From assembly GCA_902609185.1 (NCBI GenBank), contig CACLQX010000001.1, forward strand, positions 2,825 through 66,824: DNA of 64,000 nt. The letters run 5' to 3'. Position 1 is the stretch's first letter. Each line of letters starts with the position of its first letter. This stretch comes from an uncultured Bacteroidota bacterium (GTDB lineage Bacteria; Bacteroidota; Bacteroidia; Flavobacteriales; Flavobacteriaceae). Position numbers and translations under genes: made by a program. Shown piece by piece: positions 496 to 17,430 of this stretch. A model generated the notes under the pieces. That model was not told the origin of the DNA. It saw only the letters and a list, made by a program, of their open reading frames with translations, and searched no databases.

Positions 496-2937
496 ATGCC
501 AAAAAATTTAGTCATAGTTGAGTCACCTGCAAAAGCAAAAACTATAGAAAAGTTTTTAGGAAATGACTTCAAAGTTGTATCAAGTAATGGTCATATAGCA
601 GACTTACCATCCAAAGAATTAGGCATCAATATTGACAACAATTATGAACCAAAATATATTGTTAATTCAGATAAAAAAGATATTGTAAAAAAACTCAAAA
701 AGGAATCAAAAACTGCGGAGATGGTTTGGTTGGCTAGTGATGAAGACAGAGAAGGTGAGGCCATTGCCTGGCATTTATATGAGCTTTTGGGTTTAAATAA
801 AGACAATACTAAAAGAATAGTATTTCGAGAGATAACGAAAAATGCGGTATTAAAGTCAATTGAAAATCCAAGAGAAATAAATGAAAGCCTCGTAAACGCT
901 CAACAAGCCAGGAGAGTCTTAGATCGGTTGGTTGGATATAAAATTTCACCTGTTCTTTGGAGAAAGGTTAAGGGAGGATTATCAGCAGGAAGAGTTCAAT
1001 CAGTCGCGTTGAGACTAATTGCTGACAAGGAGAAGGAAATTGAAAGTTTTCAGCCAGTGAAATCTTTCAAAGTATCAGCAGAGTTTTTGACTGTTAATGG
1101 GAAAGTATTTAAAGCAAGACACAAATCTAAGATTGATGAAAATATTGATTTAGAAAGATTAATAGAGTCCCTAAAAAATTCAGAATTTAATGTATCTGAT
1201 ATCAAAAAAACTCCTTTATCTAGAAAACCGTTGCCTCCTTTCACCACATCAACACTTCAGCAAGAGGCGTCAAGAAGGCTAGGTTTTCCTGTATCCAAAA
1301 CCATGCGTACAGCTCAAAGACTATATGAACAAGGACATATAACATACATGAGAACAGACAGTGTTACTCTGTCAGATGTAGCAAAAAATGCTATAAAAAA
1401 TAAAATTTTAAATGATTTTGGTGATAAATATTTTACCCAAAGATCTTACACTAATAAATCTAAAAATGCTCAGCAAGCACATGAAGCAGTTAGGCCAACG
1501 GATTTTGAAAACAAGAATGTTTCTGTTGATTTAGACCAGGTCAAGCTGTATGATTTGATTTGGAAACGGACAATTGCAAGTCAAATGTCTCTGGCAAAAA
1601 TTGATAAAACGGTTGTTTCAGTTCAAAGTAGAACAATTGATCTAACATTTACAGCTGAAGGCGAAGTGATTAACTTTGATGGGTTTTTAAAAGTTTACAG
1701 TTCGGTAAAAGATGATGACTCAGAAAAAGATATTACTATTGATCTTCCCAAACTAAATGTGGGAGACAATTTAAATAAAAAAGCAATTTTAATTACTGAA
1801 AATTTTTCAAAACCACCATTTAGATACACTGAGGCATCTCTTGTCAGAAAAATGGAGGAATTAGGCATTGGTAGACCATCTACGTACGCCCCAACAATAA
1901 CTACTGTAATGAACAGAAAATATGTTTTTAAGGGTACAGATGATTCAAAAAAGAGAGAGATATTACAAATTATTGTCAATGATAAAATTAAAAGGCAAAA
2001 GGTGGAAGAATCATATGGTTCTAACAAAGGTAAACTTGTGCCGTCCGAAGTTGGAAAGTTAGTTAATGATTTTTTATGTAATAATTTTAAAAACATAATT
2101 GATTATAATTTTACAGCTGATGTTGAAAATAATTTCGATTTAATTGCATCAGGAAAAAAACAATGGAAAGAAATTATTAATGAGTTTTATAACCCATTTA
2201 ACAATAAAGTGTCAGAAGTTGAAAAGAATGCTAAGAGAGAAACCGGTGAAAGAATTTTAGGCTTAGATCCAAAGAGTGGAAGACAAGTGAGTGTAAAACT
2301 CGGTAAGTTTGGTCCGATGGTACAAATCGGCAAGGTTGAAGATGAAGAAAAACCATTATTTGCTAGTCTTCTTCCAGATCAAAAAATAAGTAATGTAACC
2401 ATTAAAGATGCTTTAAGATTATTTGAACTTCCTTTTAAAGTTGGTGAATATGAGGGTAAAGAAGTTATTTCTAACATAGGAAGATATGGTCCATACATCA
2501 AATATGAAAAGACCTTTATCTCAATTCCGCAAGGATTAACTCCATTTACAATTTCAATTGAAAAATCTGTTGAGCTAATTTTAAATAAGCAAAAAGAAAA
2601 CAAACCCTTAATCAACTACGAGGGTTTTGACGTCACAAAGGGTAAAGGAAGGTTTGGCCCATATATCAAATGGAATGGAACTTTTATTAATGTTAATAAA
2701 AACTATGATTTTGAAAATCTTTCGCATGAGGATTGCATTAAGCTAATCACAGATAAAAAAGCGAAGGATGCAGAAAAAATATTAAAAGTCTGGGAGTCAG
2801 AAAAAATCTCAATAGAAAAGGGTAGGTGGGGCAAAATTTTTATTATTAAAGGAAAATCAAGAATTCCGCTTTCTAAAGATATTGATATCAATTCTATAGA
2901 TTTGAAGACCGCAAAAGGTTATTTTAGAAAAAAATAA
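496..2937 (+). CDS. topA: DNA topoisomerase I
   Basis: 813 aa. Toprim N-terminus MPKNLVIVESPAKAKTIEKFLG, DEDREGEAIAWH, and active-site region ITYMRTDS. The C-terminus carries four Cys-less G[RK][FYW]G(P)..I(K) repeats (GKFGPMVQIG, GRYGPYIKY, GRFGPYIKW, GRWGKIFII) instead of zinc fingers. Confidence 0.97.
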   Translation: MPKNLVIVESPAKAKTIEKFLGNDFKVVSSNGHIADLPSKELGINIDNNYEPKYIVNSDKKDIVKKLKKESKTAEMVWLASDEDREGEAIAWHLYELLGLNKDNTKRIVFREITKNAVLKSIENPREINESLVNAQQARRVLDRLVGYKISPVLWRKVKGGLSAGRVQSVALRLIADKEKEIESFQPVKSFKVSAEFLTVNGKVFKARHKSKIDENIDLERLIESLKNSEFNVSDIKKTPLSRKPLPPFTTSTLQQEASRRLGFPVSKTMRTAQRLYEQGHITYMRTDSVTLSDVAKNAIKNKILNDFGDKYFTQRSYTNKSKNAQQAHEAVRPTDFENKNVSVDLDQVKLYDLIWKRTIASQMSLAKIDKTVVSVQSRTIDLTFTAEGEVINFDGFLKVYSSVKDDDSEKDITIDLPKLNVGDNLNKKAILITENFSKPPFRYTEASLVRKMEELGIGRPSTYAPTITTVMNRKYVFKGTDDSKKREILQIIVNDKIKRQKVEESYGSNKGKLVPSEVGKLVNDFLCNNFKNIIDYNFTADVENNFDLIASGKKQWKEIINEFYNPFNNKVSEVEKNAKRETGERILGLDPKSGRQVSVKLGKFGPMVQIGKVEDEEKPLFASLLPDQKISNVTIKDALRLFELPFKVGEYEGKEVISNIGRYGPYIKYEKTFISIPQGLTPFTISIEKSVELILNKQKENKPLINYEGFDVTKGKGRFGPYIKWNGTFINVNKNYDFENLSHEDCIKLITDKKAKDAEKILKVWESEKISIEKGRWGKIFIIKGKSRIPLSKDIDINSIDLKTAKGYFRKK

Positions 2938-2945
2938 TTCAGAGA

Positions 2946-4061
2946 GTGTTAAAAGATTACTTCAGTTCACTAATTGATTTTAAAGAATTTCACGATAAAC
3001 TAAATAAGAAATCAATTGGTAGAAATATTATAATAAATGGTATTGATGAGTTCGAAATAGATCAATCAATTAGTATTGTATTATTGTCTGTTGAGGGTTT
3101 AAAATTAGACTCAAAAAATAGTTTAAATTATTCAAAAAAAATTAGAAAAAAATTATATGGCTTATCGTGGGGAGGTTGGAATTTAAAGATTTTAGACTTG
3201 GGATTTTTTAAAATTGGAAATCAAGACTCGGATACTCAGTTTGCTATAAGAGAAATTTTAGAAAAATTAGCGTCCATGCAAATAAAAGTCGTTGTTTTAA
3301 ATCACAACCATAATTTAACTTTTGATTTTTATTACGCATTAAAACAAAACAATAATATTGTTAATATTGTTTCGGTTGACAATAAAATTCCAACTAATTC
3401 TAAAGATTCATCATTAAGAAAAATTTTAGACGATGAAAATTGTAAACTTGGAGAATATTCAAACGTAGGTTTTCAAAAACACATTAATAATATTGATGAA
3501 ATTAAACTTTTTAAAAATATGATGTTTGAAACGTATAGTCTGGGTAAAGTAAAAAATAAAATAATCAATACAGAACCAATTTTTAGAAATTCTGATTTAG
3601 TTAATATCAGTATACGTGCAGTTAAATCAGGTGACGTTAATAATTCACATGAATTTACAAATGGATTGTCATCTTATGAATTTTGTAGTCTCTGCAGATT
3701 TGCAGGTTTATCAACCAACTTAAATTTAATTTCTTTTAGATTAGACTATCAATCCTCTGCCATATCATCATTAATTTCGGAGGGAATATGGTATGCTATT
3801 GATGGTATGGATAGTGTAGTGGAAGAAAATATAGATGTTAACTCAGAAAATTATATTTTTTATAACGTTTCAGTAGATAATTTTGATCTAAAATTTGTAA
3901 AGAGTTTACTTAGTAACAGGTGGTGGGTGTGTCTTGAAAATATTAATTTAGTTCAGATGGAAAAAACCTATATTCCATGTGTTGAAGATGATTATTTATT
4001 ATCTAAAAATTCTGTTTTGTCTGACAGGATATTGACAAGAATAAAAAATAAAATAACCTAA
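2946..4061 (+). CDS. Hypothetical protein (possibly a degenerate arginase/formiminoglutamase-fold protein)
   Basis: 371-aa ORF with a GTG start 8 nt after the topA stop. There is no in-frame ATG for about 110 codons and no signal peptide. The segment VVVLNHNHNLTFDFYYAL...VSVDNKIP loosely resembles the strand-GGxH.../..D.H.D layout of arginase-family proteins, but without the metal ligands. The function call is tentative. Confidence 0.65.
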   Translation: MLKDYFSSLIDFKEFHDKLNKKSIGRNIIINGIDEFEIDQSISIVLLSVEGLKLDSKNSLNYSKKIRKKLYGLSWGGWNLKILDLGFFKIGNQDSDTQFAIREILEKLASMQIKVVVLNHNHNLTFDFYYALKQNNNIVNIVSVDNKIPTNSKDSSLRKILDDENCKLGEYSNVGFQKHINNIDEIKLFKNMMFETYSLGKVKNKIINTEPIFRNSDLVNISIRAVKSGDVNNSHEFTNGLSSYEFCSLCRFAGLSTNLNLISFRLDYQSSAISSLISEGIWYAIDGMDSVVEENIDVNSENYIFYNVSVDNFDLKFVKSLLSNRWWVCLENINLVQMEKTYIPCVEDDYLLSKNSVLSDRILTRIKNKIT

Positions 4062-4119
4062 AATTAAATCAAAAGTATTATTTTAGGGTCCAATTTTTGA
4101 TATTGTATACATATATAGT

Positions 4120-5610
4120 ATGAAAAAAAATTTATTATTAGTAGCATTTTTGTTTTTACTGTTTTCTTGTTCAAAGGACGATAGAGGAGATCTCGTTGGA
4201 GTTAAGGCCTCAAAATTTTTTCCCAATAAACCACAAGGAATGGTCCTAATTCCCTCCGGTTCATACGTCATGGGACCCTCAAATCCAAATGCATATATGG
4301 ATCAAAATCCTACTCTAAAAACTGTTTCTTTGAAAGCGTTTTACATGGACGAAACGGAGATCTCTAATGGTGAGTATAGACAGTTTGTTAATTGGGTCAG
4401 AGATTCGATTGTCAGAGATGAACTTGCTCGAGCAGCATATGAAAAAATTGGAGATGAGATTAATGAAGAAGATCTTCTTTGGGATTATATGCCTATCGCA
4501 AAGATATCTGAATCTGATGATGAGGAAAAATCTGCTTATCAAGAATATTTAGAGCAAAATGGTTTAGGGTTTCTAGATATTGATAATAAATTTACCTACA
4601 AACTTAATTGGGAGACTGAACTTTATTGGAATGTTGAAGATTATGTGGATTCGAATTACGCAGCTGTATTAGAGGGTGGCTCTGGAGCAGATTCATCTGG
4701 GCTTTATGAAAATCTTCCCAATCCCATTAATGAAAAAGGTGAGGCAAAAGAATATATTAAAACTAATGATTCACTCATAGGTTTTGAAGGATTTATGATT
4801 CCTGGCGATAAGACACCAAATGGTTTAAGGGCGTTCAAAACAAAAAGAATTGTATATAATTACAGGGAATTTAATATTGATCAGAATAAATGGTCTGAAT
4901 ACAAGGAGATTGAAGTTTATCCAGATACTACTGTGTGGTACAAGGATTTTGCATTTAGTTACAATGAACCAATGCACAATGATTATTTTTGGCATGATGC
5001 TTACAATGATTACCCTGTTGTAGGTGTTTCATGGGAGCAAGCCAAGGCTTTTGCTCATTGGAGGACTTTTTATAAAAACCAAAACCAAAGAAAAGCAAGA
5101 AAAAATATTCAATTAGTTAGTGAATTTAGGCTACCTACTGAAGCTGAGTGGGAGTATGCAGCAAGAGGAGGTATTGAAAGAGCTGAGTTTCCGTGGGGAG
5201 GGCCATACACATATGATGAAAAAGGTTGTTTTCTTGCCAATTTTAAACCTGAAAGAGGAGATTATGCTGCTGACCAGATTTTATATACTGCCGAGGTGGA
5301 ATCTTATTGGCCGAATGATTTCGGATTATATAATATGTCAGGAAATGTTTCAGAGTGGACTGACTCCAATTATGAAAAGGATGCAGTTGATTTAGTAGCT
5401 GGATTAAACCCAAATGTTGAAGGATCTAAAACAAATAATCAAAAAGTTGTCAGAGGTGGATCTTGGAAGGACGTGGCTCATTTTTTAAAGGTATCTACAA
5501 GAGATTATGAATATCAAAATACGAAAAGATCCTACATAGGCTTTAGAACAGTTCAAAGTTATCTTGGAGAGGATGTAGGCTTTCAAGAAAACCCTAATAA
5601 AATATTTTAA
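4120..5610 (+). CDS. gldK: T9SS/gliding lipoprotein GldK (PorK homologue), FGE-sulfatase-like domain
   Basis: 496 aa. Lipoprotein signal MKKNLLLVAFLFLLFSC followed by DLVGV..PQGMVLIPSGSYVMG. SUMF1/FGE-type motifs are present (YPVVGVSWEQAKAFAHW, RLPTEAEWEYAARGG, GNVSEWT, VVRGGSW). It is the first gene of a gldKLMN string. Confidence 0.93.
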   Translation: MKKNLLLVAFLFLLFSCSKDDRGDLVGVKASKFFPNKPQGMVLIPSGSYVMGPSNPNAYMDQNPTLKTVSLKAFYMDETEISNGEYRQFVNWVRDSIVRDELARAAYEKIGDEINEEDLLWDYMPIAKISESDDEEKSAYQEYLEQNGLGFLDIDNKFTYKLNWETELYWNVEDYVDSNYAAVLEGGSGADSSGLYENLPNPINEKGEAKEYIKTNDSLIGFEGFMIPGDKTPNGLRAFKTKRIVYNYREFNIDQNKWSEYKEIEVYPDTTVWYKDFAFSYNEPMHNDYFWHDAYNDYPVVGVSWEQAKAFAHWRTFYKNQNQRKARKNIQLVSEFRLPTEAEWEYAARGGIERAEFPWGGPYTYDEKGCFLANFKPERGDYAADQILYTAEVESYWPNDFGLYNMSGNVSEWTDSNYEKDAVDLVAGLNPNVEGSKTNNQKVVRGGSWKDVAHFLKVSTRDYEYQNTKRSYIGFRTVQSYLGEDVGFQENPNKIF

Positions 5611-5639
5611 TTAAAATTTCAAACTAAAAATTAACAATT

Positions 5640-6221
5640 ATGAAAAAACAATTTATACCCGACAATTACATGGAATTATTCTTTGGAATAGGAGCTGCAG
5701 TTGTAATTATTGGTGCTCTCTTAAAAATTATTAATGCATCACTAATATTCTCAGCTAACACTTGGCTCATTGCTGGACTATCAACTGAAGCAATAATTTT
5801 TACTCTTTCAGGTATTCAAGGTTATTTTCTTTCATCACCTGGCGAAGAGGAAGATGCTGTCAGTACTATTGCAATTGAAACTGCTGCATTACAAAAAGCA
5901 GTTGACGGAACTGTTAAAGGTCTGAATAGTTTAAATTCAAATCTAACCTCCGCATCCAAAGCCGCACAATCTATTTCTGTTCCCTCTGATTTGTCATCTA
6001 ATGCTCAATCAGTAAGCGATGGGCTTTCATCTGCAAGTGCAAGTATTGAGGAGATCAATAAATTGTATCAAAACTTAGGAAAATCTTTATCTCAAGTAAA
6101 CTCGGCCACTGATGCCTTGGACATTCCGGACGGAATTGGTGAAGAGTTAGAGAAAATGAAGAATACAATTAAGGAGTTAAATGCTAAGTATGAAGCAATG
6201 CTTGGCGCAATGAACAAGTAA
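5640..6221 (+). CDS. gldL: T9SS/gliding motor protein GldL (PorL homologue)
   Basis: 193 aa. Two N-terminal TM helices (LFFGIGAAVVIIGALLKI; WLIAGLSTEAIIFTLSG) followed by a Ser/Ala-rich cytoplasmic tail. It sits between gldK and gldM. Confidence 0.88.
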   Translation: MKKQFIPDNYMELFFGIGAAVVIIGALLKIINASLIFSANTWLIAGLSTEAIIFTLSGIQGYFLSSPGEEEDAVSTIAIETAALQKAVDGTVKGLNSLNSNLTSASKAAQSISVPSDLSSNAQSVSDGLSSASASIEEINKLYQNLGKSLSQVNSATDALDIPDGIGEELEKMKNTIKELNAKYEAMLGAMNK

Positions 6222-6223
6222 AA

Positions 6224-7918
6224 ATGGCTGGATCATCAGGAAAACAAACGAGAAGTCAACAGTCTCGTCAGAAAATGATAAACATGATGTACCTCGTGTT
6301 TATTGCCATGCTTGCATTACAGATTAGTAAAGAGGTATTGGCTACCTTAGGAATTTTAAGTGAGGATATGGAAAAATCCACTGCTGAGCTTAAAATCTCT
6401 ATTGACAATGCCTACACTATTATTGATCAAAATAGTAATCAGGATTATTACAAAATTCCATCTGAGGAGTTGCCAAAGCTAAAAGACGCAACTGACGAAT
6501 ATTTTAAATTCCTTCAAAACATGAAGGATTCTCTAATAGGAATGGATGAAAATAATTATATGATTGATATTGAATACACGGATGAGAATGGTGAAGAAAA
6601 AGTTAGTCAAAGAAGAGATTATCAAGTGATGGATAAAAGTAATTACCTTGATGAAATGTTTTTTATTAGTGATGGAGTCACTGATAAAGGACAACAGTTT
6701 ATCGATTATTTTAAAGGATTTTCAGGAAAAGTAGAAGCAGTTTTAGATTCAATTGTACAAAGAGATGCGAGAACTGTTCAATCTAATTATGGTTTTTCTG
6801 CTGCATTTTCTAACTTATCTCTAAGGTTTAAATATCCAGAAGATGACCAAGTTGTAAACAGAGATGGAATCAAGGAAGACTGGATCTATTATAACTATGA
6901 AAAGTTTCCATTAGTTGCTTCACTTGCTAAAATCACTAAGATTCAAGCAGATATTAGATCTGTTGAATATGAAATTTTAAATTCTTTGGTTAGTAAGACC
7001 AAAGACCGTCAGCTTAGTTTTGACTCGAAAAGTACATTATTAGAGACTGATCGACAAGCCTATTACACAAACAGTGTTGTTGACGCCAAGGTTGTTGTTG
7101 GAAATACTGATTCTAGTTTCAAACCTGACAGAGTTGATTTAAAAGTTGATAATGTTTCACTAAGAGATTCTGAATTTGAGGTTGTTGATGGTAAGATCAA
7201 GCTTAGTAAAAGATTCTCATCACCTGGAATTAAAAAAATATTCGGATATCTATTCTTTGATAATAATGGAAATACTGACAGTCTTCTTGTTGACACTCAA
7301 TTTTATGTTATTCCAAAACCAAATGAGGCTGTTGTATCCCCAATTAATATGCAAGTGTTTTACATTGGTTTAAGAAATGAAATTAAAGTTGCATTTCCCG
7401 GTGTTGCAGACTTGACCTCAATTAATGTTTCAGCGAAAAATGGTCAAGTAATAAGACAAAACGGAAAATATTATGCTGCTCCTGATGCAGGTGTTACTAG
7501 TATGGATGTAGTAGTTTCTGGAAAAACTAATGATGAAACAGTTACAAGCGTAGTGCCTTTTGATGTTGCTGAGGCTCCACCTGGAAGAGGTTCGGTATTT
7601 ACAGGTGTAGAAAGTTTTGTAAATACAGATGGTGTATCCAAGAACAATTTAAAATTTGGTCAGATCAGAGGAGAAAAACCACCATCTTTTTTATATGATT
7701 ATGCAATTAATGTAAAAAGATTTCAAATAAAAGTTGGAAACTTTAACACAAGGGATATCGTTGGAGATAGGGTTAATGCTAATGCATCGGCTTTGGCAGA
7801 TATTGATGCAGCCAGCTCTGGCACAAGTGTTGTAATCACTATATTAGATGCCGAAAAAATTGATGGTGATTTTAAATCGCCAACTGTAGTTGAACCATTT
7901 GTTTTAACTTTAAAATAA
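6224..7918 (+). CDS. gldM: T9SS/gliding protein GldM (PorM homologue)
   Basis: 564 aa. The hallmark N-terminus is ..SRQKMINMMYLVFIAMLALQISKEVL (a single TM), followed by a long periplasmic region. It starts 2 nt after gldL. Confidence 0.93.
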   Translation: MAGSSGKQTRSQQSRQKMINMMYLVFIAMLALQISKEVLATLGILSEDMEKSTAELKISIDNAYTIIDQNSNQDYYKIPSEELPKLKDATDEYFKFLQNMKDSLIGMDENNYMIDIEYTDENGEEKVSQRRDYQVMDKSNYLDEMFFISDGVTDKGQQFIDYFKGFSGKVEAVLDSIVQRDARTVQSNYGFSAAFSNLSLRFKYPEDDQVVNRDGIKEDWIYYNYEKFPLVASLAKITKIQADIRSVEYEILNSLVSKTKDRQLSFDSKSTLLETDRQAYYTNSVVDAKVVVGNTDSSFKPDRVDLKVDNVSLRDSEFEVVDGKIKLSKRFSSPGIKKIFGYLFFDNNGNTDSLLVDTQFYVIPKPNEAVVSPINMQVFYIGLRNEIKVAFPGVADLTSINVSAKNGQVIRQNGKYYAAPDAGVTSMDVVVSGKTNDETVTSVVPFDVAEAPPGRGSVFTGVESFVNTDGVSKNNLKFGQIRGEKPPSFLYDYAINVKRFQIKVGNFNTRDIVGDRVNANASALADIDAASSGTSVVITILDAEKIDGDFKSPTVVEPFVLTLK

Positions 7919-7919
7919 A

Positions 7920-8828
7920 ATGAAAAAAATATTCTTACTCTCTTTATTGGTGTTCTCTGCTGATGATATGTTTGGTCAAGCTAACTTATTGAATGCGAAA
8001 AATCCTCTAGAAGTTGGTGATTCTTCATCAAGTAAAGCAATCGTTGAGTTTATGGATTATGAATATGTAGATGATAAAGATATTTTATGGTCCAAAGTGG
8101 TTTACGAATTTATTGATCTTAATGAAAGGTTAAATTTTCCATTACTTTTCCCTGTTAATGATACAAAATATGATGATACAAGAAAATCATTATGGAGAAT
8201 TATTAGAGAAAATATTGAAAATGGAAAAATTAGTGAGGTTTATGACTCCAACAACGATAACTTCACAGAAGCTTCAAGAATAATAGGAAAAGATAGTACT
8301 GATTTAGAAGCCAATATTTATAAAAACTATAATATTAGTGACATTTACAAGTCCAAATATGTTCCAGAATCTTTTGTTCCAAGGGAAATTGCCTCCTCTG
8401 CTGATATTTTTGGATATGTTATAAAGGGTGTATGGTATTTTGATAAAATTCATGCTGAACTGAGATACAGGTTATTGGCAATACAGCCATACGGAACTGA
8501 TCTTAAGACATCTGTTGACGGTGAAGAAACTGAGACAGGATATTTTTGGATATGGTACCCATCTATAAGAGAGATTTTAGATGATCATTTAGTTTTTAAT
8601 GATAAAAACAACAATAACAGAGTCTCATTTGATGAACTCCTAATTAACAGAAGATTTAGCTCGTACATATACAAGTATGATAATGTTTACGGAGATAGAG
8701 AAATTAGAGATTATATCAGACAGAGAGATAATGAATCATATGCTCAATGGCAAACTAGAATCGTGATGGAATCCGAAAGAATCAAGAAAGAAATTCTAGA
8801 CTTTGAAATTGACATGTGGGGTTACTAA
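7920..8828 (+). CDS. gldN: T9SS/gliding protein GldN (PorN homologue)
   Basis: 302 aa with a signal peptide, starting 1 nt after gldM. The IKGVWYFDKIHAELRYRLLAIQPYG segment resembles the conserved GldN/PorN core. Confidence 0.85.
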   Translation: MKKIFLLSLLVFSADDMFGQANLLNAKNPLEVGDSSSSKAIVEFMDYEYVDDKDILWSKVVYEFIDLNERLNFPLLFPVNDTKYDDTRKSLWRIIRENIENGKISEVYDSNNDNFTEASRIIGKDSTDLEANIYKNYNISDIYKSKYVPESFVPREIASSADIFGYVIKGVWYFDKIHAELRYRLLAIQPYGTDLKTSVDGEETETGYFWIWYPSIREILDDHLVFNDKNNNNRVSFDELLINRRFSSYIYKYDNVYGDREIRDYIRQRDNESYAQWQTRIVMESERIKKEILDFEIDMWGY

Positions 8829-8840
8829 GAATGTTAACTC

Positions 8841-9848
8841 ATGAAACCCAATATTGTCAAAGTTTTTTCTCTATTGTTCATAGTCGCGTGTCTATGCTTT
8901 AAGTCTTATTCACAAGATCCAGTCTTTACACAGTTTTACAATATTCCTGATTATTTAAATCCATCTTTTACAGGCTTTTCTAAAGGAACTAAGGTTGGTA
9001 TTATAAACAGAACCCAGTGGTTTGGTCTGAATTATGGTTTAAACTCACAATTTTTCTTTATTGATAATTATTTTGGAGATGACGCTGAAACTGGAGTAGG
9101 TTTGGGACTAAACATAATGAATCATCATGAAAGTGTGACAAGATATAATTTTACTCAGGTCAATCTAAATTATGCCCATCATTTAAAATTATCAAAGGAA
9201 TGGTATTTTAACCCAAGCCTGACAGTTGGTTTGGGTGTAAAGGATTATACTTTTGATTATTTACTTGAAGATCAAATTCTAATTTTCCAAGGAATTATTA
9301 ATGCAAATTCAAATGATCCTATTTTATTAAATGATAGTTTATCTTTTTTTGATATGTCAGCTGGACTATTATTTTACACAGAAAATATTTGGTTTGGTGC
9401 TAGCTTAAAACACCTGACAAATCCAAAAATTTCATTCACTGGCGATGGAACAATCAAATTGGATCACTTTCTCTCAGTTCATGGAGGTTATAAATGGGAT
9501 TTGAGTAATAGAAGTATCAGGGAAGATTTGGATTTAAATATTGATTTAAATTATATGAGACAGGGCAATTATGATCGATTTGATGTAGGAACTAGATTAA
9601 AGTACAACGATTTTAGCTTGGGAGTTTTTGGCGTTGTAGCTCCAACAGATGTCACTGGTAGGTCTCATAAGTTGACATCATTTAATATTGTTGGAAACAT
9701 TGATTTTGATCGATTCAGATTTGGATACTCATATGACTTAAATGTGAGTGAGCTAAGGAATACAAAAGGAGTTTTTGAAATTTCAATTTCATATAAGTTT
9801 GATTCCTTCTTTGGAAATAATGGGCCTAACCCGTGTGAATGTATGTAA
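8841..9848 (+). CDS. Type IX secretion system membrane protein, PorP/SprF family
   Basis: 335 aa. A signal peptide is followed by QDPVFTQFYNIPDYLNPSFTGF, which is the family signature (QDPxFSQY..NP...G). The rest has a beta-barrel-like alternating pattern. Confidence 0.85.
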   Translation: MKPNIVKVFSLLFIVACLCFKSYSQDPVFTQFYNIPDYLNPSFTGFSKGTKVGIINRTQWFGLNYGLNSQFFFIDNYFGDDAETGVGLGLNIMNHHESVTRYNFTQVNLNYAHHLKLSKEWYFNPSLTVGLGVKDYTFDYLLEDQILIFQGIINANSNDPILLNDSLSFFDMSAGLLFYTENIWFGASLKHLTNPKISFTGDGTIKLDHFLSVHGGYKWDLSNRSIREDLDLNIDLNYMRQGNYDRFDVGTRLKYNDFSLGVFGVVAPTDVTGRSHKLTSFNIVGNIDFDRFRFGYSYDLNVSELRNTKGVFEISISYKFDSFFGNNGPNPCECM

Positions 9849-12800
9849 TTAAAATGAAGAATTTTAGAAACATATCGCTAATAATTTTTACTTTTTGGAC
9901 TTTACTGTTCTCTGTCAATATTCAATCTCAGGTTAATAATATTAGCCAAAACAGAACATATGACACTGATGCAACGAAAAACACTGTTTATTTTATTGGC
10001 AATAATGAGTGTATCAATATTACCATTGATCTAAACATGATATCATTCCAAGATCAAAATGGGAATTACTATGGATTTGATTTGGGTGATGGAAATAACT
10101 ATCAACCAATCCCCGATAATTGGGATTTTGAAATTACCAATTTACCATCACCAGGAAGTGAATTATCCTCCGATGGTAAAACCTTTAAATATTGTACTGG
10201 ATCCGAAAACCCAAATAATACTTTCACCATAAGAATAAGAATTTTTGATAAAAATACAGGTACTGATATTTCGAATCTAGGTAATGTAAATCTTACCTTA
10301 TATATAAGAGATAAATTTAAAATTGGTAATGGAATCTGGAATGCCTGTGTGAGTCGATTTATTCTCTCTGTTAGTGAAACTATTGATGGAAATAATCAAT
10401 CTGCTTGTTCACCCTACACGATTAAAGTTTACAAATTAAATGAAAAAGACGCCGGACCAATTTATGAAAATACACAAGATAATAACACTTGGAATTTAGA
10501 TCTTGATATTGGACAATATCAGGCAGATATTACGGACAGTTGTGGTCAGCTCATTGAAAATTACTTAATTGATATTAGGGATGCTTACACATTTTCCGTT
10601 GATATTCTCTTTGAGGGATTCCAGTGTTTTGATGATAACAGTGGGCGAGTTGTGGTACAAATTAAAGGTGCTCAAGTATTTCAAGGTGGTGATTTGGATG
10701 GACAAATTAAATGGAGTCTAACAAATGCTAATGGTGATATAATTAGAAGTAATGGTACAAATACTGGACAGTCGAATTATTCATCTAATCAGGGTGGAGG
10801 ACCTCCTTTTGATTATGGTGTTGTAGATTTAGCAATTGAAATTCTGGGCCTCCCTGAGGGTACTTATACATTCTATTTTGAAGATGCTAATGGTTGTACT
10901 GAGGAAAAACAAATTACAATTGAAAAGTCAGTTCCAATTACAGCAGGTCTATTGGATGGTGCAGTTGATCAATTAGCATGTCACGGAGATACAAATGGTA
11001 AATTATGCTTTAAAGCTTCTGGAGGTTGGACTGAGCCATGGGATGGTAATACAATTAATACAGATGCTTGGGGAGCTCCTTACACTTTTACACTTTTAAA
11101 TTTAACAACTGGACAGGGATATAGTTCAGTTAGTGTAACTAATCATTTTGATAACAGCGGAAATCAAGATGGTTATCAAACATGTTTTAATAATCTTCCT
11201 GCTGGTAAATATCGATTGACAGTTGGAGAAACTGTTGCGAATGATCCTTATGACAGCACTAAAACGATTTTGTGTGAGAGAAGTTTTCAGGAGTTTGAAA
11301 TTACTGAGCCTGACCCAATAACAACTGCTCAATCAACGATAAAAGGTATTACATGTAAGGGTGATGATGATGGTGCTATTAATTTAGTCGTTGCTGGCGG
11401 AACATCCCCATTTACTTATTCTTGGACTAAATCAGGTGATACATCCTATTCTGCATTAACTGAGGATTTGAGTGACTTATCACCAGGAACATACAATGTT
11501 ACGATCACAGATGCCAATGGTTGTTCGATTTCTAGATCATTTACAATTGAAGAACCTGACACCTTAGAAATGCAAGCGTCTATTTTAACAGAAATATTAT
11601 GTTATGGTGATGACGGGTCAATAAAAGCTGAGATTACAAAACAATCTGATGGTCCATATGTATTTAGAATAAGCGGTACGGACTTTAACAACAATATAAT
11701 TACACCAGTAGGTGTAACACTGTCAGATGTAAATAATCTGAGTACAATATTTGTAGTAAAGGCAGGTACTTACATAGTTTCTGTAACTGATGCTAATGGT
11801 TGTCAATTGGCTGAGGAAAATATTACCCTTACACAGCCTGATGCTCCACTTACAATTGATAGTTCTACCATTCAAAATATTTCATGTTTTGGAGCTGATG
11901 ATGGCTCAATTGATCTAGTAGTTTCAGGTGGTACAGGTGCTTACACGTATCAGTGGTCTAATGGAGCAACCTCTGAGGATTTATCCAACTTAGCACCAGG
12001 AACATATACAGTTACAATAACAGATGTTAATCAGTGTTCAACTTCAGAACAATATACTGTTACTGAGCCAGCACTATTAGTTGCTTCCGGAACTAAATCT
12101 TCTCACAATGGTTTTGAAATTACATGTAATGGTGCTGATGATGGATCAATTGACCTAACAGTTTCTGGAGGAACCAGTCCTTATATATATTCTTGGACAA
12201 AAACAGGTGATGATTCTTACACTAGTTCTTCAGATGATATATCAGACCTGTCACCTGGAATATACCTAGTAAATGTAATTGATGCAAATGGATGTAGTTC
12301 AGATCAGACATTTACTATTTCTGAACCAGATGAATTATTAATTTCTTCATCAATTTTATCAGCCATTGGTTGTTACGATGGAAATGCAAACATTCAAGTC
12401 GATGTTGCTCAGGCATCTGTTGGTCCTTATGTGTTCACATTAGTTGGAAATGATTACAACAATCAGCCTGTTTCTTTGACTTCAAGTTCATTAGTTGAAT
12501 CCGATTTGGATGCTGTGTTTAATACTGTTAAAGCTGGGGTGTATACAATAAGAGTTACGGACAGAAATAATTGTTTTAAAGAACTCCCATTAACAATCTC
12601 TCAACCTGATGCAATCACAATAGACTATCAAGTTTCTGATTATAATGGCTTTAGTGTAAGCTGTGTGGATTCTAGCGATGGTTCAATAAATATTTCAGTT
12701 GTTGGTGGTACAATAAACAATACTGACTATACATTCTCATGGTCTACAAGTGACGGTTCAGGTCTTGATTTAAGTTCATTGAATCAAAATGGTCTTTCTG

Positions 12801-15673
12801 CAGGAACATACAATTTAATTGTGAGTGATGATAATGGATGTAGTATTCAGCAAGAGATTGTATTAGATGAGCCAACAGAAATTACAATTACTGAAAATAT
12901 ATCTAATTACAGTGGTTATCAAATTAGTTCATCTGGTGGTAGTGATGGTACTATAGTATTGAATGTAGTTGGTGGCACAAATAGTTTTACTTACAAATGG
13001 TCGACTAATGATGGTAGCGGCCTGGCTGCAAATCAAAAAGATCAGAGTGGTCTTTCTGCTGGCACATATACAGTTGTTGTTACTGATTCAAACGGATGCT
13101 CTGTTACAAAAACTTACACATTAGAAGAACCTACTGCATTGCTGATTTCGATTGACAATAGTGTTGTCTCAAATATTGCATGTTTTGAAGGAAACACAGG
13201 AAAAATTAAAATTGATATCGATCAAGCTTCTGTTGGACCATATACTTATGAAATCTTTGGTACTACTTACACTGGTGATCCGTACCTAAACAGAGTTGAT
13301 AATATTGATCTGCTAACTTACACCTTTACTGGCCTGGTAGCTGGTAAGTATCAGATAACAGTTACTGATGGTAACGGAAATTCAAATACAACAGGTATTA
13401 AAGAAATTACTCAGCCTGAAACCCCTTTAATTGTTACAGCTGTTTTGTCAACATATGGTAATTTTAATGTTGGGTGTCAAACTGATAACGATGGTTCAAT
13501 TGATATTACAGTTTCAGGTGGTAATGTTGCAGGAAATGCAAATTACACCTACGTCTGGTCAACAACAGATGGAAGTGGCTTAATTCAAGGTGATGAAGAC
13601 CAATCTGGATTGGGCCCAGGAACATACACGGTTTCTGTAACAGATGAGAATAATTGTACAGCAACCCAATCCTTTACTTTAACTCAGGCGCAACCATTGA
13701 ATTATGTATTGGATAGAAAACAAGATATTACGTGTTTTGGAGATGATGATGGAGCAATTGAAATTTCAGTGAATGACGGTACAGGCGTTTACACATACGA
13801 TTGGTCAACCACTAACGGGAGTGGACTGGTTCAAGGCCAGCAAGACCAATCTGGACTAAGTCCTGGTGATTATAAATTGATTTTATCTGACTCATGTACA
13901 ACTCTTGAGTATAATTATACGATCAGATCGCCTGGAGAACTAGAAATTTCACTTGATGAAGTTCAAAATGTTTTATGTTTCGGAGATAGTACTGGAAAAA
14001 TATCTGTTACAGTATCTGGCGGAACACAACCTTACAATTACGTATGGATAGATAATTTTGGAAACACTTATAACAGAGATATTGGGAATGTCTTTAACTC
14101 AGGAAACTTATCAAATATTCCTGCTGGAACATATACCTTAACTTTAACAGATTCTAATCAATGTAGTGCAACATTGCCGCCAGTAGAGATTACTGAGCCG
14201 GCAGATTTATTATTGTCATTTGATAAAACAGACCTGAGTTGCTACAACTCCAATGATGGTACAATAACTGTAACTGCATCAGGTGGTGTATCACCTTACA
14301 CATATACTTGGAGTGATTTAGGAAATGGAAGTTCAAGAGATAATCTTGCTGCAGGAACATATTCAGTCATAGTTAAAGATGCAAACGAATGTGAGGAAAC
14401 AGTTGATATTGTTATTGCAAATGCTGAATTATTTGATGTAGATCCAGTGATAACTCAAATCAGCTGCTTTGGAGCAAATGACGGAAGTATTGAATTAAAT
14501 TTTGTTGGTGGTGTTGGAAATGTAAATGTTCAGTGGACTGATGACTCAACTGCTGGCGTAAATAGAAACAATTTATCTCCTGGAGTTTACTCAGTTTTAA
14601 TTACGGATGAATCGTCATGTACTATTGAAAGAGACTTCACAATTATTGAGCCTCAAGAAATAGAAATTACAGGAATAATCACAAATGCTATTGATTGTAT
14701 TGAACCGAATAGCGGCTCAATTGATTTGCAAGTTGCTGGTGGGACTGCCCCCTACACATTCTTGTGGTCCAACGGCTCAACAACTGAAGATCTTACAAAT
14801 GTCCCTGCAAACAACTATTTAGTTACTGTTACAGATTCTAATGGTTGTATTTCTGAAAAGGAATTTGAAATAACAAGACAGGACGATTTAGAGATCATTT
14901 TAGATACAGAATTATTTGCAATTTGTGATACAAGAGAAGTCTTCCAGAAAAGTACTGTTTCATTTTCTGGTGGTGTTGCCCCGTACACAATAACATGGTC
15001 CAATGGTGTTGTTACGGGTTCAAATGGTGAAATAATGGATACAAATGTTGAAGGTTCATATGAAGTTACTGTTACCGACTTTCTTGGTTGTAGCGAGTCA
15101 TTGATTTTTAATGTGAGTTTACCTGAGATTGGTTTTCCAGAATTTGATTACACATCATTTTATTTTACAAACTATGGTGGGTTATCAATCAATGATCCAA
15201 TCACATTCACAAACCAATCATCTCAAGAGTATTTCTCTGTGCTTTGGAATTTTGGAGATGGAAATACATCAACAGATGAAAACCCAACACATACATATTC
15301 AGCTAGGGGATGGTATGATGTAACACTTACTGTTGAATTTATTTTAGGGTGTTCATACTCAATTACAAAAACTCTATACATAGGAGATGATTACGAAATG
15401 GTTATACCAAATGCTTTTACTCCAAATCTTGATAATATAAATGAAACATTTAGACCAGTCTATTATGGAATTACCAGTATTAGATTAACTGTATATGATA
15501 CTTGGGGAACACTTATATATTACGAAGATTCAACAGAAAATGAAATGATAGGATGGGACGGAACAATCAATGGTAAAAAAGCTGAGAACGGAAACTTCTT
15601 TTATCAAGTTTCTGCTACTACATACACAGGAAATTTGATTGAAAAAAATGGTGCATTTACATTAATAAGATAA
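9839..15673 (+). CDS. Giant cell-surface adhesin: SprB-type repeats + PKD domain + T9SS type-B C-terminal sorting domain
   Basis: 1944 aa; a more likely start is ATG 9854 (MKNFRNISLIIFTFWTLLFSVNIQSQ signal). There are at least 15 tandem Cys-containing modules of the C.G..DGSI.L.VSGG..PY.Y.W...G......L..L..G.Y.V.V.D.NGC type. A PKD-like segment (WNFGDGNTSTDENPTHTYSARGWYDVTLTV) lies at about 15205-15335. The type-B sorting domain (VIPNAFTPNLDNINETFRP...GWDG...G.FFYQV) lies at about 15398-15670. Confidence 0.9.
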   Translation: MYVIKMKNFRNISLIIFTFWTLLFSVNIQSQVNNISQNRTYDTDATKNTVYFIGNNECINITIDLNMISFQDQNGNYYGFDLGDGNNYQPIPDNWDFEITNLPSPGSELSSDGKTFKYCTGSENPNNTFTIRIRIFDKNTGTDISNLGNVNLTLYIRDKFKIGNGIWNACVSRFILSVSETIDGNNQSACSPYTIKVYKLNEKDAGPIYENTQDNNTWNLDLDIGQYQADITDSCGQLIENYLIDIRDAYTFSVDILFEGFQCFDDNSGRVVVQIKGAQVFQGGDLDGQIKWSLTNANGDIIRSNGTNTGQSNYSSNQGGGPPFDYGVVDLAIEILGLPEGTYTFYFEDANGCTEEKQITIEKSVPITAGLLDGAVDQLACHGDTNGKLCFKASGGWTEPWDGNTINTDAWGAPYTFTLLNLTTGQGYSSVSVTNHFDNSGNQDGYQTCFNNLPAGKYRLTVGETVANDPYDSTKTILCERSFQEFEITEPDPITTAQSTIKGITCKGDDDGAINLVVAGGTSPFTYSWTKSGDTSYSALTEDLSDLSPGTYNVTITDANGCSISRSFTIEEPDTLEMQASILTEILCYGDDGSIKAEITKQSDGPYVFRISGTDFNNNIITPVGVTLSDVNNLSTIFVVKAGTYIVSVTDANGCQLAEENITLTQPDAPLTIDSSTIQNISCFGADDGSIDLVVSGGTGAYTYQWSNGATSEDLSNLAPGTYTVTITDVNQCSTSEQYTVTEPALLVASGTKSSHNGFEITCNGADDGSIDLTVSGGTSPYIYSWTKTGDDSYTSSSDDISDLSPGIYLVNVIDANGCSSDQTFTISEPDELLISSSILSAIGCYDGNANIQVDVAQASVGPYVFTLVGNDYNNQPVSLTSSSLVESDLDAVFNTVKAGVYTIRVTDRNNCFKELPLTISQPDAITIDYQVSDYNGFSVSCVDSSDGSINISVVGGTINNTDYTFSWSTSDGSGLDLSSLNQNGLSAGTYNLIVSDDNGCSIQQEIVLDEPTEITITENISNYSGYQISSSGGSDGTIVLNVVGGTNSFTYKWSTNDGSGLAANQKDQSGLSAGTYTVVVTDSNGCSVTKTYTLEEPTALLISIDNSVVSNIACFEGNTGKIKIDIDQASVGPYTYEIFGTTYTGDPYLNRVDNIDLLTYTFTGLVAGKYQITVTDGNGNSNTTGIKEITQPETPLIVTAVLSTYGNFNVGCQTDNDGSIDITVSGGNVAGNANYTYVWSTTDGSGLIQGDEDQSGLGPGTYTVSVTDENNCTATQSFTLTQAQPLNYVLDRKQDITCFGDDDGAIEISVNDGTGVYTYDWSTTNGSGLVQGQQDQSGLSPGDYKLILSDSCTTLEYNYTIRSPGELEISLDEVQNVLCFGDSTGKISVTVSGGTQPYNYVWIDNFGNTYNRDIGNVFNSGNLSNIPAGTYTLTLTDSNQCSATLPPVEITEPADLLLSFDKTDLSCYNSNDGTITVTASGGVSPYTYTWSDLGNGSSRDNLAAGTYSVIVKDANECEETVDIVIANAELFDVDPVITQISCFGANDGSIELNFVGGVGNVNVQWTDDSTAGVNRNNLSPGVYSVLITDESSCTIERDFTIIEPQEIEITGIITNAIDCIEPNSGSIDLQVAGGTAPYTFLWSNGSTTEDLTNVPANNYLVTVTDSNGCISEKEFEITRQDDLEIILDTELFAICDTREVFQKSTVSFSGGVAPYTITWSNGVVTGSNGEIMDTNVEGSYEVTVTDFLGCSESLIFNVSLPEIGFPEFDYTSFYFTNYGGLSINDPITFTNQSSQEYFSVLWNFGDGNTSTDENPTHTYSARGWYDVTLTVEFILGCSYSITKTLYIGDDYEMVIPNAFTPNLDNINETFRPVYYGITSIRLTVYDTWGTLIYYEDSTENEMIGWDGTINGKKAENGNFFYQVSATTYTGNLIEKNGAFTLIR
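11561..13933 (+). repeat. In-frame 3x higher-order repeat (units of 771, 801 and 801 nt) inside the adhesin gene
   Basis: Each unit is one long 'B' module (C[YF].G....I...I.QAS.GPY.F...G..Y......AG.Y.I.VTD.N.C) plus two SprB-type 'A' modules. The unit boundaries I mapped are 11561-12331, 12332-13132 and 13133-13933. All are in frame with 9839. Confidence 0.75.
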
Positions 15674-15726
15674 TTTCTCGAGGTATTCCAGATTAATTTT
15701 ATATTTTAGTTAATTAACTTAAAAAA

Positions 15727-16305
15727 ATGAAAAGAATATTATTTATATTTTCTTTAGTGCTTATCATTTCATGTGAATCACCTGTAAACAATGGAGTATC
15801 TGAAGAAAATCAGGCAAAATTTGAACAACAAATAGAGTCTTTTAGAACATTCACAGAAGGGTTTAGCAAAGAGGACGTAGAATTGACAATGAGTGTCATA
15901 GCTGATGATATACAGTGGAGCCCCCCAGTATATAATGGAGGAGAAACTATTGGATATGATGGCTTTGTTGAGGCTTTAAAAGGTTATTTTGAAACTTTCG
16001 ATAATGTACAGTTTTTTGAGGGAGAGGGCCCTAACCTTGGTCCAGCTCTAAGTGCAGATGCTAACACTGCCTTTTGGTCTGGGTCTTTATATTCAAGTGC
16101 AACCCCAACTGATGATCCAAGTGGGTTAAGAGTTTATGGTGTTTGGAAATGGAAGCACACAGAATCAGGAGCTGAAGGTGGAAATAAATGGTATGGATTA
16201 ATCAATTTTAATGATGAAGGAAAAATATATGGATTTAGTGATTATATGGATTACCATGGTATGCAAGTTCAAATCGAAAACTATCTAAAATCAAGTCAAA
16301 ACTAA
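15727..16305 (+). CDS. Lipoprotein, NTF2/SnoaL-like fold (paralogue 1 of 3)
   Basis: 192 aa with lipobox LVLIISC. The C-terminal pattern RVYGVWKWKH....KWYGLINFNDEGKIYGFSDYMDY is shared with the third gene of the trio. Confidence 0.7.
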   Translation: MKRILFIFSLVLIISCESPVNNGVSEENQAKFEQQIESFRTFTEGFSKEDVELTMSVIADDIQWSPPVYNGGETIGYDGFVEALKGYFETFDNVQFFEGEGPNLGPALSADANTAFWSGSLYSSATPTDDPSGLRVYGVWKWKHTESGAEGGNKWYGLINFNDEGKIYGFSDYMDYHGMQVQIENYLKSSQN

Positions 16306-16308
16306 ATT

Positions 16309-16839
16309 ATGAGAAATTTTATATTATTATTTGTAGCAGCCTTGTTTGTAGGCTGTGCATCATCTGGTGTTCAAGTAACATTTGATGATGAAAAATCAAA
16401 CGCAATTAGAGCTCACATTCAAAATTATTGTAACAATGATGTTGAAGCTGTTTTAGCTCTCGCTGCTGACAATGTTGAAGTATACATAAATAGCAGTGAA
16501 CCAATATCGCTTGAGGATGTTTTATCTATTGTAGAAGTTCAACATGCTACATTTGGACCAATTACAACCTCTTGGTCTCAAGATGATGGTGGAGAGGATA
16601 TTGGTGCTTGGATTGAGTCAACAAATTATCCTGAAGGACCAGCTAACGAGGCAGTTAGTGTTACTCAAGCATGGTTTACGTGGAATGGAACTTCAAAATT
16701 ATCTGGAGAAGTAATTTCAGTTCCAGTTCATGTCGTTTATGTGTGGAATTCTGAGGGCAAAATTGAGACCGAATATCAGTTTTATGACCCAACTAATATT
16801 GCTGCTGCTGTTGAAGCATCTCTAGCCGCTTCAGAATAA
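16309..16839 (+). CDS. Lipoprotein, NTF2/SnoaL-like fold (paralogue 2 of 3, most divergent)
   Basis: 176 aa with lipobox ALFVGC. It has a similar length and layout (helical N-terminal half, then W/Y-rich strands ending ..VWNSEGKIETEYQFYD). Confidence 0.65.
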   Translation: MRNFILLFVAALFVGCASSGVQVTFDDEKSNAIRAHIQNYCNNDVEAVLALAADNVEVYINSSEPISLEDVLSIVEVQHATFGPITTSWSQDDGGEDIGAWIESTNYPEGPANEAVSVTQAWFTWNGTSKLSGEVISVPVHVVYVWNSEGKIETEYQFYDPTNIAAAVEASLAASE

Positions 16840-16862
16840 CATTAAAATTTAAATCATATATA

Positions 16863-17381
16863 ATGAAAAAAATACTTTTCACATTTTCAATACTTTTATT
16901 TGTCGCATGCGCGTCTGATGATGATAAAGCAAAAATTGATGGTGCTAATCAATTTGTAAGTGGTATTGAAAAATTTAATACAAATAAAGCTTTGTTAGAT
17001 CAACATTTTAACTCTTTTGAAGCGGGAAAGCTTGATGAAATGATGGCTGCTATGAGTGAGGATTTAGTATGGTATTCAGCAAATGGTGATACATTATCTA
17101 AACCTGATTATGTTCAGGGAATGAGTGGCTGGCATTCAGAATTTGAAAATTTTAATTTCACAGAAAGACAGTATTTTCCTGGTGTTGATGATTCACTCTA
17201 TATACCCAATGGGTCTGTAAGAGTTTATGGTATATGGAAGTATAATCATAAAGCAACAAAAATGGATTTTTCAACCAAATATTATGGTGTGGCAGAATTT
17301 AATGAAGAAGGACTACAGACAGTTGATTATGAATATTTTGATGTGGGTGGAATCTTTCTTAAGTTACAGCAGGCTCAATAG
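16863..17381 (+). CDS. Lipoprotein, NTF2/SnoaL-like fold (paralogue 3 of 3)
   Basis: 172 aa with lipobox LLFVAC. RVYGIWKYNH....KYYGVAEFNEEGLQTVDYEYFD parallels paralogue 1. Confidence 0.7.
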   Translation: MKKILFTFSILLFVACASDDDKAKIDGANQFVSGIEKFNTNKALLDQHFNSFEAGKLDEMMAAMSEDLVWYSANGDTLSKPDYVQGMSGWHSEFENFNFTERQYFPGVDDSLYIPNGSVRVYGIWKYNHKATKMDFSTKYYGVAEFNEEGLQTVDYEYFDVGGIFLKLQQAQ

Positions 17382-17405
17382 TGAAATAATAACTTTAAAA
17401 TAATT

Positions 17406-17430
17406 AAAGGGGTTTTATACCCCTTTTTTT
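17406..17430. terminator. Bidirectional intrinsic terminator candidate between convergent genes
   Basis: AAAGGGG-ttttata-CCCCTTT stem-loop followed by a T-run on the + strand and flanked by an A-run (T-run on the minus strand). It overlaps the aconitase stop codon (17415-17417). Confidence 0.45.

Follow-up and report, generated by a model that had tools for sequence, protein, structure and literature searches.

In Flavobacterium johnsoniae, the carrier SprF has a C-terminal tail in the periplasm with an invariant Cys-X-Cys motif that forms a disulfide bond with Cys343 of GldK, and this motif is unneeded for export of the adhesin SprB but required if SprB is to keep moving helically along the track (Liu et al., Nat Commun 2025, PMC12635249). 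Cys343 of GldK is the disulfide partner of both SprF and PorG, and Cys285 of the same protein is dispensable (PMC12635249). Type IX secretion system (T9SS) cargo whose C-terminal domain (CTD) is of type B requires a cognate, genetically linked PorP/SprF-like carrier (PMC12618676; PMC9143113). Here we analyzed a 64,000-nucleotide (nt) stretch from an uncultured Flavobacteriaceae bacterium (contig CACLQX010000001.1 of assembly GCA_902609185.1, positions 2,825 to 66,824; hereafter the window, in whose numbering positions are given unless a relative is named), in which the genes gldK, gldL, gldM and gldN are followed on the same strand by a gene for a PorP/SprF-family protein and a gene for a SprB-repeat adhesin. 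On balance, and with some reserve, we favor the reading that this is a core T9SS/gliding operon to whose 3' end a SprF-type carrier and its cognate type-B adhesin have been joined. All components belong to known families; what is new is the arrangement, which is rare in the sampled species and conserved in a marine clade, together with a pattern of variation in which the interface is frozen and the passenger is variable.

The six genes lie on the forward strand in the order gldK (4120-5610), gldL (5640-6221), gldM (6224-7918), gldN (7920-8828), a gene for an outer-membrane protein of the PorP/SprF family and apparent SprF type (8841-9848, 335 amino acids (aa); hereafter the carrier) and the adhesin gene (open reading frame (ORF) 9839-15673). 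The successive junctions from gldK to the carrier gene measure 29, 2, 1 and 12 nt, and the carrier and adhesin genes either overlap by 10 nt, if the ORF boundary at 9839 is used, or are separated by 5 nt, if the adhesin starts at the ATG at 9854. The ORF list reproduced each of these spacings as they had been given in an earlier reading of the same letters (hereafter the original prediction). We consider the ATG at 9854, from which the adhesin is 1939 aa long (9854-15673), a likelier start than the ORF boundary at 9839; from there the protein opens with a normal signal peptide (MKNFRNISLIIFTFWTLLFSVNIQSQ), its N-terminus agrees with that of the homologue at locus L087 (MKNFYQN...), and an equivalent start was called in an independent single-cell assembly (locus L092, 1939 aa).

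Profile searches placed the carrier in the PorP/SprF family (TIGR03519, 198.5 bits against a cutoff of 90.55; PF11751, 165 against 22.3) and identified in the adhesin 13 stretches of SprB repeats (PF13573, 378.9 bits) and a type-B CTD (TIGR04131, 42.6 bits against 35, at residues 1856-1944 of the 1944-aa ORF; CHU_C, PF13585, 39.5 against 27). The original prediction had named gldK-L-M-N, a PorP/SprF-like gene and a type-B adhesin and had proposed these profile checks; the carrier and the adhesin C-terminus both match the models in question, and the gene assignments pass the curated cutoffs, except for GldL on TIGR03513. The adhesin is organized as a signal peptide, a variable passenger, a PKD domain (about 15182-15379, forward strand) and the type-B CTD (about 15404-15670, forward strand), and since its gene contains no tandem DNA repeats, length variation by slippage is unlikely. 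An AlphaFold2 model of the carrier (predicted local distance difference test score, 75) has 14 beta strands and a signal helix, with the C-terminal tail (residues 321-335) disordered. A PDB sequence search with the carrier found no relative, and fold comparison alone gave matches; the best of these were FadL and, in the T9SS translocon complexes 8gl6 and 6h3i, chain F, presumably PorV.

The motor and ring components were assigned by profile and by structure. GldK (496 aa; TIGR03525, 493.8 bits against a cutoff of 350) contains an FGE-sulfatase domain (PF03781) and a lipoprotein signal (lipobox LFSC, Cys17), and it aligned in a PDB sequence search to the Porphyromonas gingivalis PorK structures 9ots and 9mzu (E-value 8e-84), its motif GCFLANFKP pairing with GCFLGNFKP of those structures. 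GldM (564 aa; TIGR03517, 215 bits against 180) contains GldM domains 1-3 and has PDB matches in the GldM chains 6ys8_A and 7saz_A; relative to 7saz it keeps SRQKMINMMYLVF with the arginine motif at its N-terminus. GldN (302 aa) passes both TIGR03523 (207.3 bits against 85.9) and PF19841 (167.3 against 23). GldL is a short form of 193 aa that passes Pfam GldL_N (51.8 bits against 24) and falls under the cutoff of TIGR03513 (55.2 against 68.3); its best PDB match is chain 7saz_C, spanning the transmembrane region and the C-terminal domain, 6ys8 matches as well, and the motif GLSTEAIIF of the second transmembrane helix retains its glutamate. We accepted the 193-aa protein as GldL by position and motif.

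The carrier ends in NPCECM, and both cysteines of this tail, Cys332 (9834-9836) and Cys334 (9840-9842), fall within the disordered segment of the model. Tails were compared across the carrier's 120 best homologues. In the nearest tier (52-62% identity, from marine metagenomes and single-cell amplified genomes (SAGs)), every full-length member ends in PCGCK, and a Cys-X-Cys tail is also kept in the carriers of loci L001, L008 and L087; the next tier (44-51% identity) ends in CFGCPDY. By these alignments, twin tail cysteines are general in the branch to which the carrier belongs, and the window has the C-X-C spacing of SprF. On the side of GldK, Cys370 (5227-5229) is the equivalent of F. johnsoniae GldK Cys343; it sits 58 residues past the column of the second cysteine, which matches the spacing from C285 to C343, and it is invariant in the aligned GldK sequences from the fetched loci (81 of 81). 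The second cysteine column, that of F. johnsoniae Cys285, is Ala312 in the window (5053-5055), and a cysteine is missing at this column from 22 of the 81 sequences. Because the Cys-X-Cys tail of the carrier and GldK Cys370 are both present, the cluster encodes both proposed partners of the disulfide bond.

Conservation of the arrangement was assessed by a locus scan that used one genome per GTDB species and a 10-sequence GldN alignment, with the window's own species lying outside the matches listed. An initial GldN homologue search had returned only proteins that were at least 93% identical, and wider diversity came from a library clustered at 50%; an alignment of 41 GldN sequences proved too divergent for scanning loci. 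The species scan gave at least 80 gldN loci (loci are designated L followed by a number), mostly from Flavobacteriaceae. The genes topA, a gene of the type that encodes a 371-aa protein in the window, and gldKLMN are conserved together in approximately 77 of the 86 loci searched (L001-L086). Among the 80 other-species loci listed, a PorP/SprF gene was found within 10 kb of gldN in L008 alone (SAG AG-325-E07, GldN 49% identical), and a narrow profile and a broader one built from 41 homologues agreed on this. Linkage of gldN to a carrier gene is thus rare outside the genus of the window (1 of 80 loci among the matches listed). At the typical Flavobacteriaceae loci that were inspected (L012, L013, L017, L072 and L081), the gene after gldN encodes approximately 350 aa, and its L012 copy is for a DAO-family oxidoreductase. 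As a separate observation, in the sister lineages L007 (11150-20849) and L009 (11224-20850) giant proteins with Big_9, cadherin, Calx-beta, NHL and C-type-lectin domains come directly after gldN, in place of a carrier-SprB pair. It may be a recurrent feature of the clade that a giant surface protein follows the motor operon.

Within the marine relatives the carrier and its cargo travel together. Loci L001-L006 (GldN 93% identical) comprise topA, a gene for a 368-aa protein without assignment, gldKLMN, a 296-aa Asp_protease_2-like gene, a PorP/SprF gene, a gene for a 2421-aa SprB-like adhesin and small ORFs. The arrangement of the window, with no protease-like gene and a 1939-aa adhesin, is repeated in the independent assemblies L092-L097 (SAG GCA_902526165.1 and several metagenomes), except that in L094, whose GldN is as in L092 (99% identical to that of the window), the protease-like gene is present and the adhesin measures 2428 aa. 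In L087 (SAG GCA_902539075.1), gldKLMN is followed by the protease-like gene, the carrier gene and the adhesin gene. Other lineages place the pair after different genes: in L098 the carrier gene stands between the genes for a 3100-aa cadherin-like protein and a 2412-aa SprB-like protein, and in L099, L100 and L101 an ABC-F ATPase gene precedes the carrier gene and the gene for a SprB-like protein. The order of carrier and then SprB-like cargo was found in all six contexts of the marine tier with a C-X-C tail, so the pairing of a PorP-like gene with a type-B adhesin that the original prediction had proposed is borne out, and the carrier-first pair is by these comparisons a conserved two-gene module in the marine clade. 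The pair follows gldN in the genus of the window, in L087 and in L008, and judging from this distribution, attachment of the module to gldKLMN is lineage-restricted but old. Searches of a full-text collection turned up no description of a PorP/SprF gene downstream of gldN.

The same comparisons bear on the frame in which the cluster should be read. The original prediction had treated it as a permutation of porP-KLMN, which we regard as the wrong frame; a SprF-type module appended carrier-first to gldKLMN describes it better. Had the permutation been right, the 335-aa protein would be the organism's general PorP, a core T9SS component as in P. gingivalis, shifted from the upstream side of porK to the downstream side of porN, with the adhesin a mere neighbor. 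The protein does belong to the PorP/SprF family, and in P. gingivalis porP is part of porPKLMN, while PorP is the sole member of the family there and binds a type-B CTD protein (PMC9143113, PMC12618676). Against this, the carrier's relatives are always paired with a SprB-like cargo of type B, often at a distance from gldKLMN, 79 of the 80 other-species loci listed have no PorP/SprF gene within 10 kb of gldN, the twin-cysteine tail is a documented feature of SprF (PMC12635249), and carrier and CTD are conserved together. We consider a displaced PorP very unlikely. Because of its twin-cysteine tail, its constant type-B cargo neighbor and the location of the pair away from gldKLMN elsewhere, the 335-aa protein looks like a cargo-specific carrier of the SprF type.

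The junction between gldN and the carrier gene is direct in the window (8828-8841), where, as in L008, the protease-like gene is absent, and is interrupted by that gene in L001 (10921-11811), L087 (9106-9999) and L094 (1489-2379). Since relatives whose GldN is 93% and 51% identical have the protease-like gene between gldN and the carrier gene, the direct junction of the window is a derived state that reflects loss of this gene. In these relatives the protease-like gene abuts the carrier gene at a distance of 0-1 nt. A remnant of it in the window was looked for by tblastn and none was found. The encoded protein is a secreted one of 296-297 aa with a retropepsin-like C-terminal Asp_protease_2 domain and the motif FDSGAT.

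Variation among close relatives is distributed unevenly across the cluster. Window and L094 DNA are 96.5% identical through gldM-gldN up to position 8845, and the inserted gene of L094 comes next; past the insertion, identity is 84% in the carrier gene, and the adhesin gene is 68-71% identical or unalignable. The fall in similarity toward the variable part begins at the gldN stop codon. We considered whether L094 was an assembly chimera of the window type and L001 and rejected this, as L094 is evenly colinear with L001 at about 84-85% throughout. At the protein level, the window is 92% (GldK), 95% (GldL), 94% (GldM), 93% (GldN) and 93% (carrier) identical to L001, while identity of the adhesin is 45-62% over its first 1600 aa, climbs to 78% and then 89%, and is 98-100% across the final ~140 aa (92% over the last 250 aa). 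Comparison with L094 gave the same picture (carrier 95%, CTD 94%, first 1600 aa of the adhesin 38-63%), and the last 120-250 aa of the adhesin are 87-100% identical to those of relatives. Taken over the close relatives, machinery, carrier and the final 250 aa of the adhesin show 92-100% identity (carrier 93-95%, CTD 94-100%), against 38-62% for the passenger. By these identities the parts that would fit the machine (carrier, PKD domain and CTD) are constant and the exposed passenger diverges, and the constancy of carrier and CTD agrees with the cognate CTD-carrier specificity of F. johnsoniae (PMC12618676). One apparent exchange of the CTD beside an identical carrier, in L096 (9016-10316), was rejected, because its last 1.3 kb, holding the 3' end of the adhesin gene and the gene after it, have a G+C content of 51% against 34.5% in the remainder; this low-coverage metagenome contig has a chimeric join, within a SprB repeat, to DNA of another organism.

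Transcription of the cluster was considered from the spacer upstream of gldK to the first terminator. The 58-nt spacer (4062-4119, forward strand), delimited as a candidate promoter or operator by its conservation footprint, is 96.6% identical to that of L001 (6140-6198), compared with 75-85% for the flanking genes. Its core motif AAATTAAAYCAAAAGTRTTATTTTAGGGTCCAA recurs in L008 (about 1934-1991) and L087 (about 4330-4394) and is partly present in L009 and L007, lineages in which GldN is only ~50% identical. The Bacteroidetes -7 box TAnnTTTG is matched twice within the spacer, each time at 7/8; the spacer has no Rfam match, and it probably is the promoter, or a regulator-binding site, of the T9SS core operon. 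A terminator scan of positions 1-18000 detected no forward-strand hairpin or T-tract at any junction of the six genes, in agreement with the original prediction; the sole convincing forward-strand terminator-like site in that interval, and the first after the cluster, is a bidirectional hairpin at 17406-17426 (AAAGGGGTTTTATACCCCTTT then TTTTTATT) between the forward-strand block and a convergent aconitase gene. With gaps of 12 and 5 nt, there is no room for intergenic promoters ahead of the carrier and adhesin genes. Because of the short gaps, the lack of a terminator before 17406 and the conserved spacer ahead of gldK, read-through is plausible, and we think it probable that gldK through the adhesin gene are co-transcribed.

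These elements suggest the following sequence of events. Transcription would most likely start from the conserved gldK upstream spacer and proceed through gldN into the carrier and adhesin genes. The adhesin, by analogy with SprB/SprF of F. johnsoniae, would be exported through the T9SS translocon, and the carrier barrel would capture its conserved PKD and CTD region and so hold it at the cell surface. The periplasmic Cys332-X-Cys334 tail of the carrier might then form a disulfide bond with GldK Cys370, which would hook the adhesin to a GldK/GldN track or ring driven by the GldLM motor. At the population level, machinery, carrier and CTD are constant, and the passenger and the presence of the extra gene after gldN vary. 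No PorE-like gene was found in the cluster or in the 64-kb window, which fits the 'dynamic' class of type-B adhesins of F. johnsoniae, if the analogy holds.

Several observations weigh against this reading, and they concern the identity of the carrier, the expression of the cluster and the movement of the adhesin. As to identity, the carrier is likened to F. johnsoniae SprF by family and tail, as a putative counterpart, and the Flavobacterium homologues among its best matches (38-43% identity) have a C-X-X-C rather than a C-X-C tail; at two loci with C-X-X-C homologues (L089 and L091), the canonical order of cargo then carrier is found, and the order of the window pair is reversed relative to sprB-sprF. 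The GldK cysteine is non-discriminating, being invariant in all GldK/PorK. The pair occurs away from gldKLMN in other lineages and can therefore act without the linkage.

As to expression, the carrier and adhesin genes could be adjacent to the motor genes and yet separately expressed, from a promoter of their own that lies towards the 3' end of gldN or inside the carrier gene, with genome compactness explaining the adjacency and no regulatory coupling to the motor genes. The forward-strand block extends beyond the six genes, from topA (496) to 17381, and coding density in the window is 96.6%, with a median gap of 18 nt; this local density is the one figure behind the streamlined genome that the original prediction had supposed. 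Since the median same-strand gap beyond the cluster is 19.5 nt, the gaps within the cluster are ordinary for this genome. Tight spacing alone is no operon evidence here, and the significance of the adjacency lies in its conservation in other lineages. Motifs resembling the -7 box occur within gldN (8405 and 8541) and within the carrier gene (9097, 9248 and 9794), the last of them TAAGTTTG, 60 nt ahead of the adhesin ATG, and in other lineages the pair follows an ABC-F ATPase gene or a giant cadherin-like gene. However, matches to TAnnTTTG are at chance frequency (15 against 12.3 +/- 3.5), so that these internal motifs neither show nor exclude internal promoters; a sigma-70 promoter scan was uninformative for Bacteroidota (113 sites against 87 expected). 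Further points against separate expression are that conservation leaves no footprint in the last 100 nt of gldN (84% identity, compared with 85% over the whole gene and 96.6% in the gldK spacer), that the linkage to gldN is kept where GldN is only ~50% identical, and that the inserted gene and the carrier gene are joined by 0-1 nt in relatives. We regard separate expression as rather unlikely.

As to movement, the cluster could serve static attachment to particles or algae in a planktonic, streamlined bacterium, with GldKLMN used for secretion only, like the PorKN ring of P. gingivalis. Neither gldJ, sprA, porV nor other T9SS or gliding genes were found further in the 64-kb window, and gldA/F/G, gldB/D/H/I and sprE/T were likewise not found there; without gldJ or another gliding gene in the window, movement over static display is unsupported. 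Open-ocean metagenomes and single-cell genomes contain this lineage in abundance, and the adhesin, at only 1939 aa, is presumably about 30% of the length of SprB, which measures about 6500 aa. On the other side, Cys-X-Cys is dispensable for display and needed for track-driven movement in F. johnsoniae (PMC12635249), and it is strictly conserved in the clade; static type-B adhesins of F. johnsoniae come with a PorE-like gene (PMC12618676), and none is present here. A static device is thus possible, in our view, but doubtful beside a motor-coupled carrier and adhesin joined to gldKLMN. A broader proposal, which we put forward as tentative, is that in a streamlined planktonic marine clade of Flavobacteriales gldKLMN has become hard-wired to a carrier-first module whose interface (SprF-like carrier, PKD domain and type-B CTD, with the GldK cysteine) is frozen and whose passenger is swapped or diversified within populations, making it a natural minimal motor plus one exchangeable adhesin; it would then also be an independent signature, at the genome level, of the covalent GldK-SprF coupling described in 2025.

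Several neighboring features were noted. Between topA and gldK lies a gene for an uncharacterized 371-aa protein (2946-4061, forward strand) without a Pfam or NCBIfam match; a counterpart stands at the same place in approximately 77 of the 86 gldN loci searched, mostly from Flavobacteriaceae, so that it is a widely conserved, unnamed neighbor of the T9SS core operon. The sequence TACATTTG at 462-477, 26 nt before the topA start, is the only intergenic consensus -7 box in positions 1-18000. Downstream of the adhesin gene are three tandem genes for small lipoproteins of 192, 176 and 172 aa (15727-17381, forward strand), all with lipoprotein signal peptides; their matches to SnoaL_2/DUF4440 are weak and sub-threshold, and none is PorE-like. 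The first and the third are paralogous. Identity to the SAG locus L092 is only 65-69% for the second and third genes, although it is 96-99% for neighboring genes, and the 15727-17381 stretch is likewise variable. Small lipoprotein genes also occur downstream of the adhesin in relatives, and membership of the three in the adhesin system is uncertain. An Rfam scan returned two tRNAs only and no match inside the cluster. Three further genes have no evident link to the T9SS cluster, namely those for a Porin_10 family outer-membrane protein (37457-39361, 371 bits), a DUF4953 Met-zincin with DUF5117/5118 domains (29569-32019) and an ECF sigma factor (59345-59857). Housekeeping genes make up what remains of the window (era, der, alaS, lysS, lipB, rnhB, gltBD, folC, lpxK, lipA, murB, valS and others).

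If the favored reading is true, GldK, a SprF-type carrier and a moved adhesin are encoded in one compact, probably co-transcribed unit, which would give natural genetic support to the track-attachment model; it would also provide a small gene set for rebuilding adhesin loading in a heterologous host. The contrast between a conserved carrier and CTD and a hypervariable passenger separates the machine-constrained from the free parts of the adhesin, and it points to diversifying pressure on surface adhesion in a flavobacterium that is abundant in the open ocean and regarded as free-living. The protein family assignments are unaffected by the choice of reading, and the interest lies in the arrangement and the population variation.

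Set beside the described systems, the cluster is closest to sprB-sprF and gldKLMN of F. johnsoniae. Both have the GldK/L/M/N core, a 14-strand barrel of the PorP/SprF family, an adhesin bearing SprB repeats and a type-B CTD, a carrier with a Cys-X-Cys C-terminal tail and the partner cysteine in GldK, and in both the pair comes without a PorE-like gene. The window pair lies directly downstream of gldKLMN and not with sprC and sprD, which we take to be the neighbors in F. johnsoniae (the comparison was made without a profile test). In F. johnsoniae, sprB-sprF is not described beside gldKLMN and runs from cargo to carrier (PMC12618676), whereas in the window the pair is joined to the 3' end of gldKLMN and runs from carrier to cargo. 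The other type-B pairs of F. johnsoniae (among them Fjoh_3952/Fjoh_3951 and Fjoh_4750) resemble it as cognate, linked carriers and cargos whose CTD is conserved through carrier recognition; unlike it, they are cargo-first and scattered over the chromosome, five have a PorE homologue, and none is reported fused to a motor operon. The porPKLMN cluster of P. gingivalis likewise links a PorP/SprF-family gene to the K-L-M-N genes, and its product binds a type-B CTD protein. There, however, porP lies upstream, the type-B partner PG1035 is not described as a neighbor, and PorP is part of a static complex with the peptidoglycan-binding PorE. In the window, topA and the 371-aa protein gene, rather than a PorP-type gene, stand upstream of gldK, the carrier gene lies downstream of gldN with its presumptive cargo directly after it, the tail of the carrier has twin cysteines, and PorE-like genes are absent from the vicinity.

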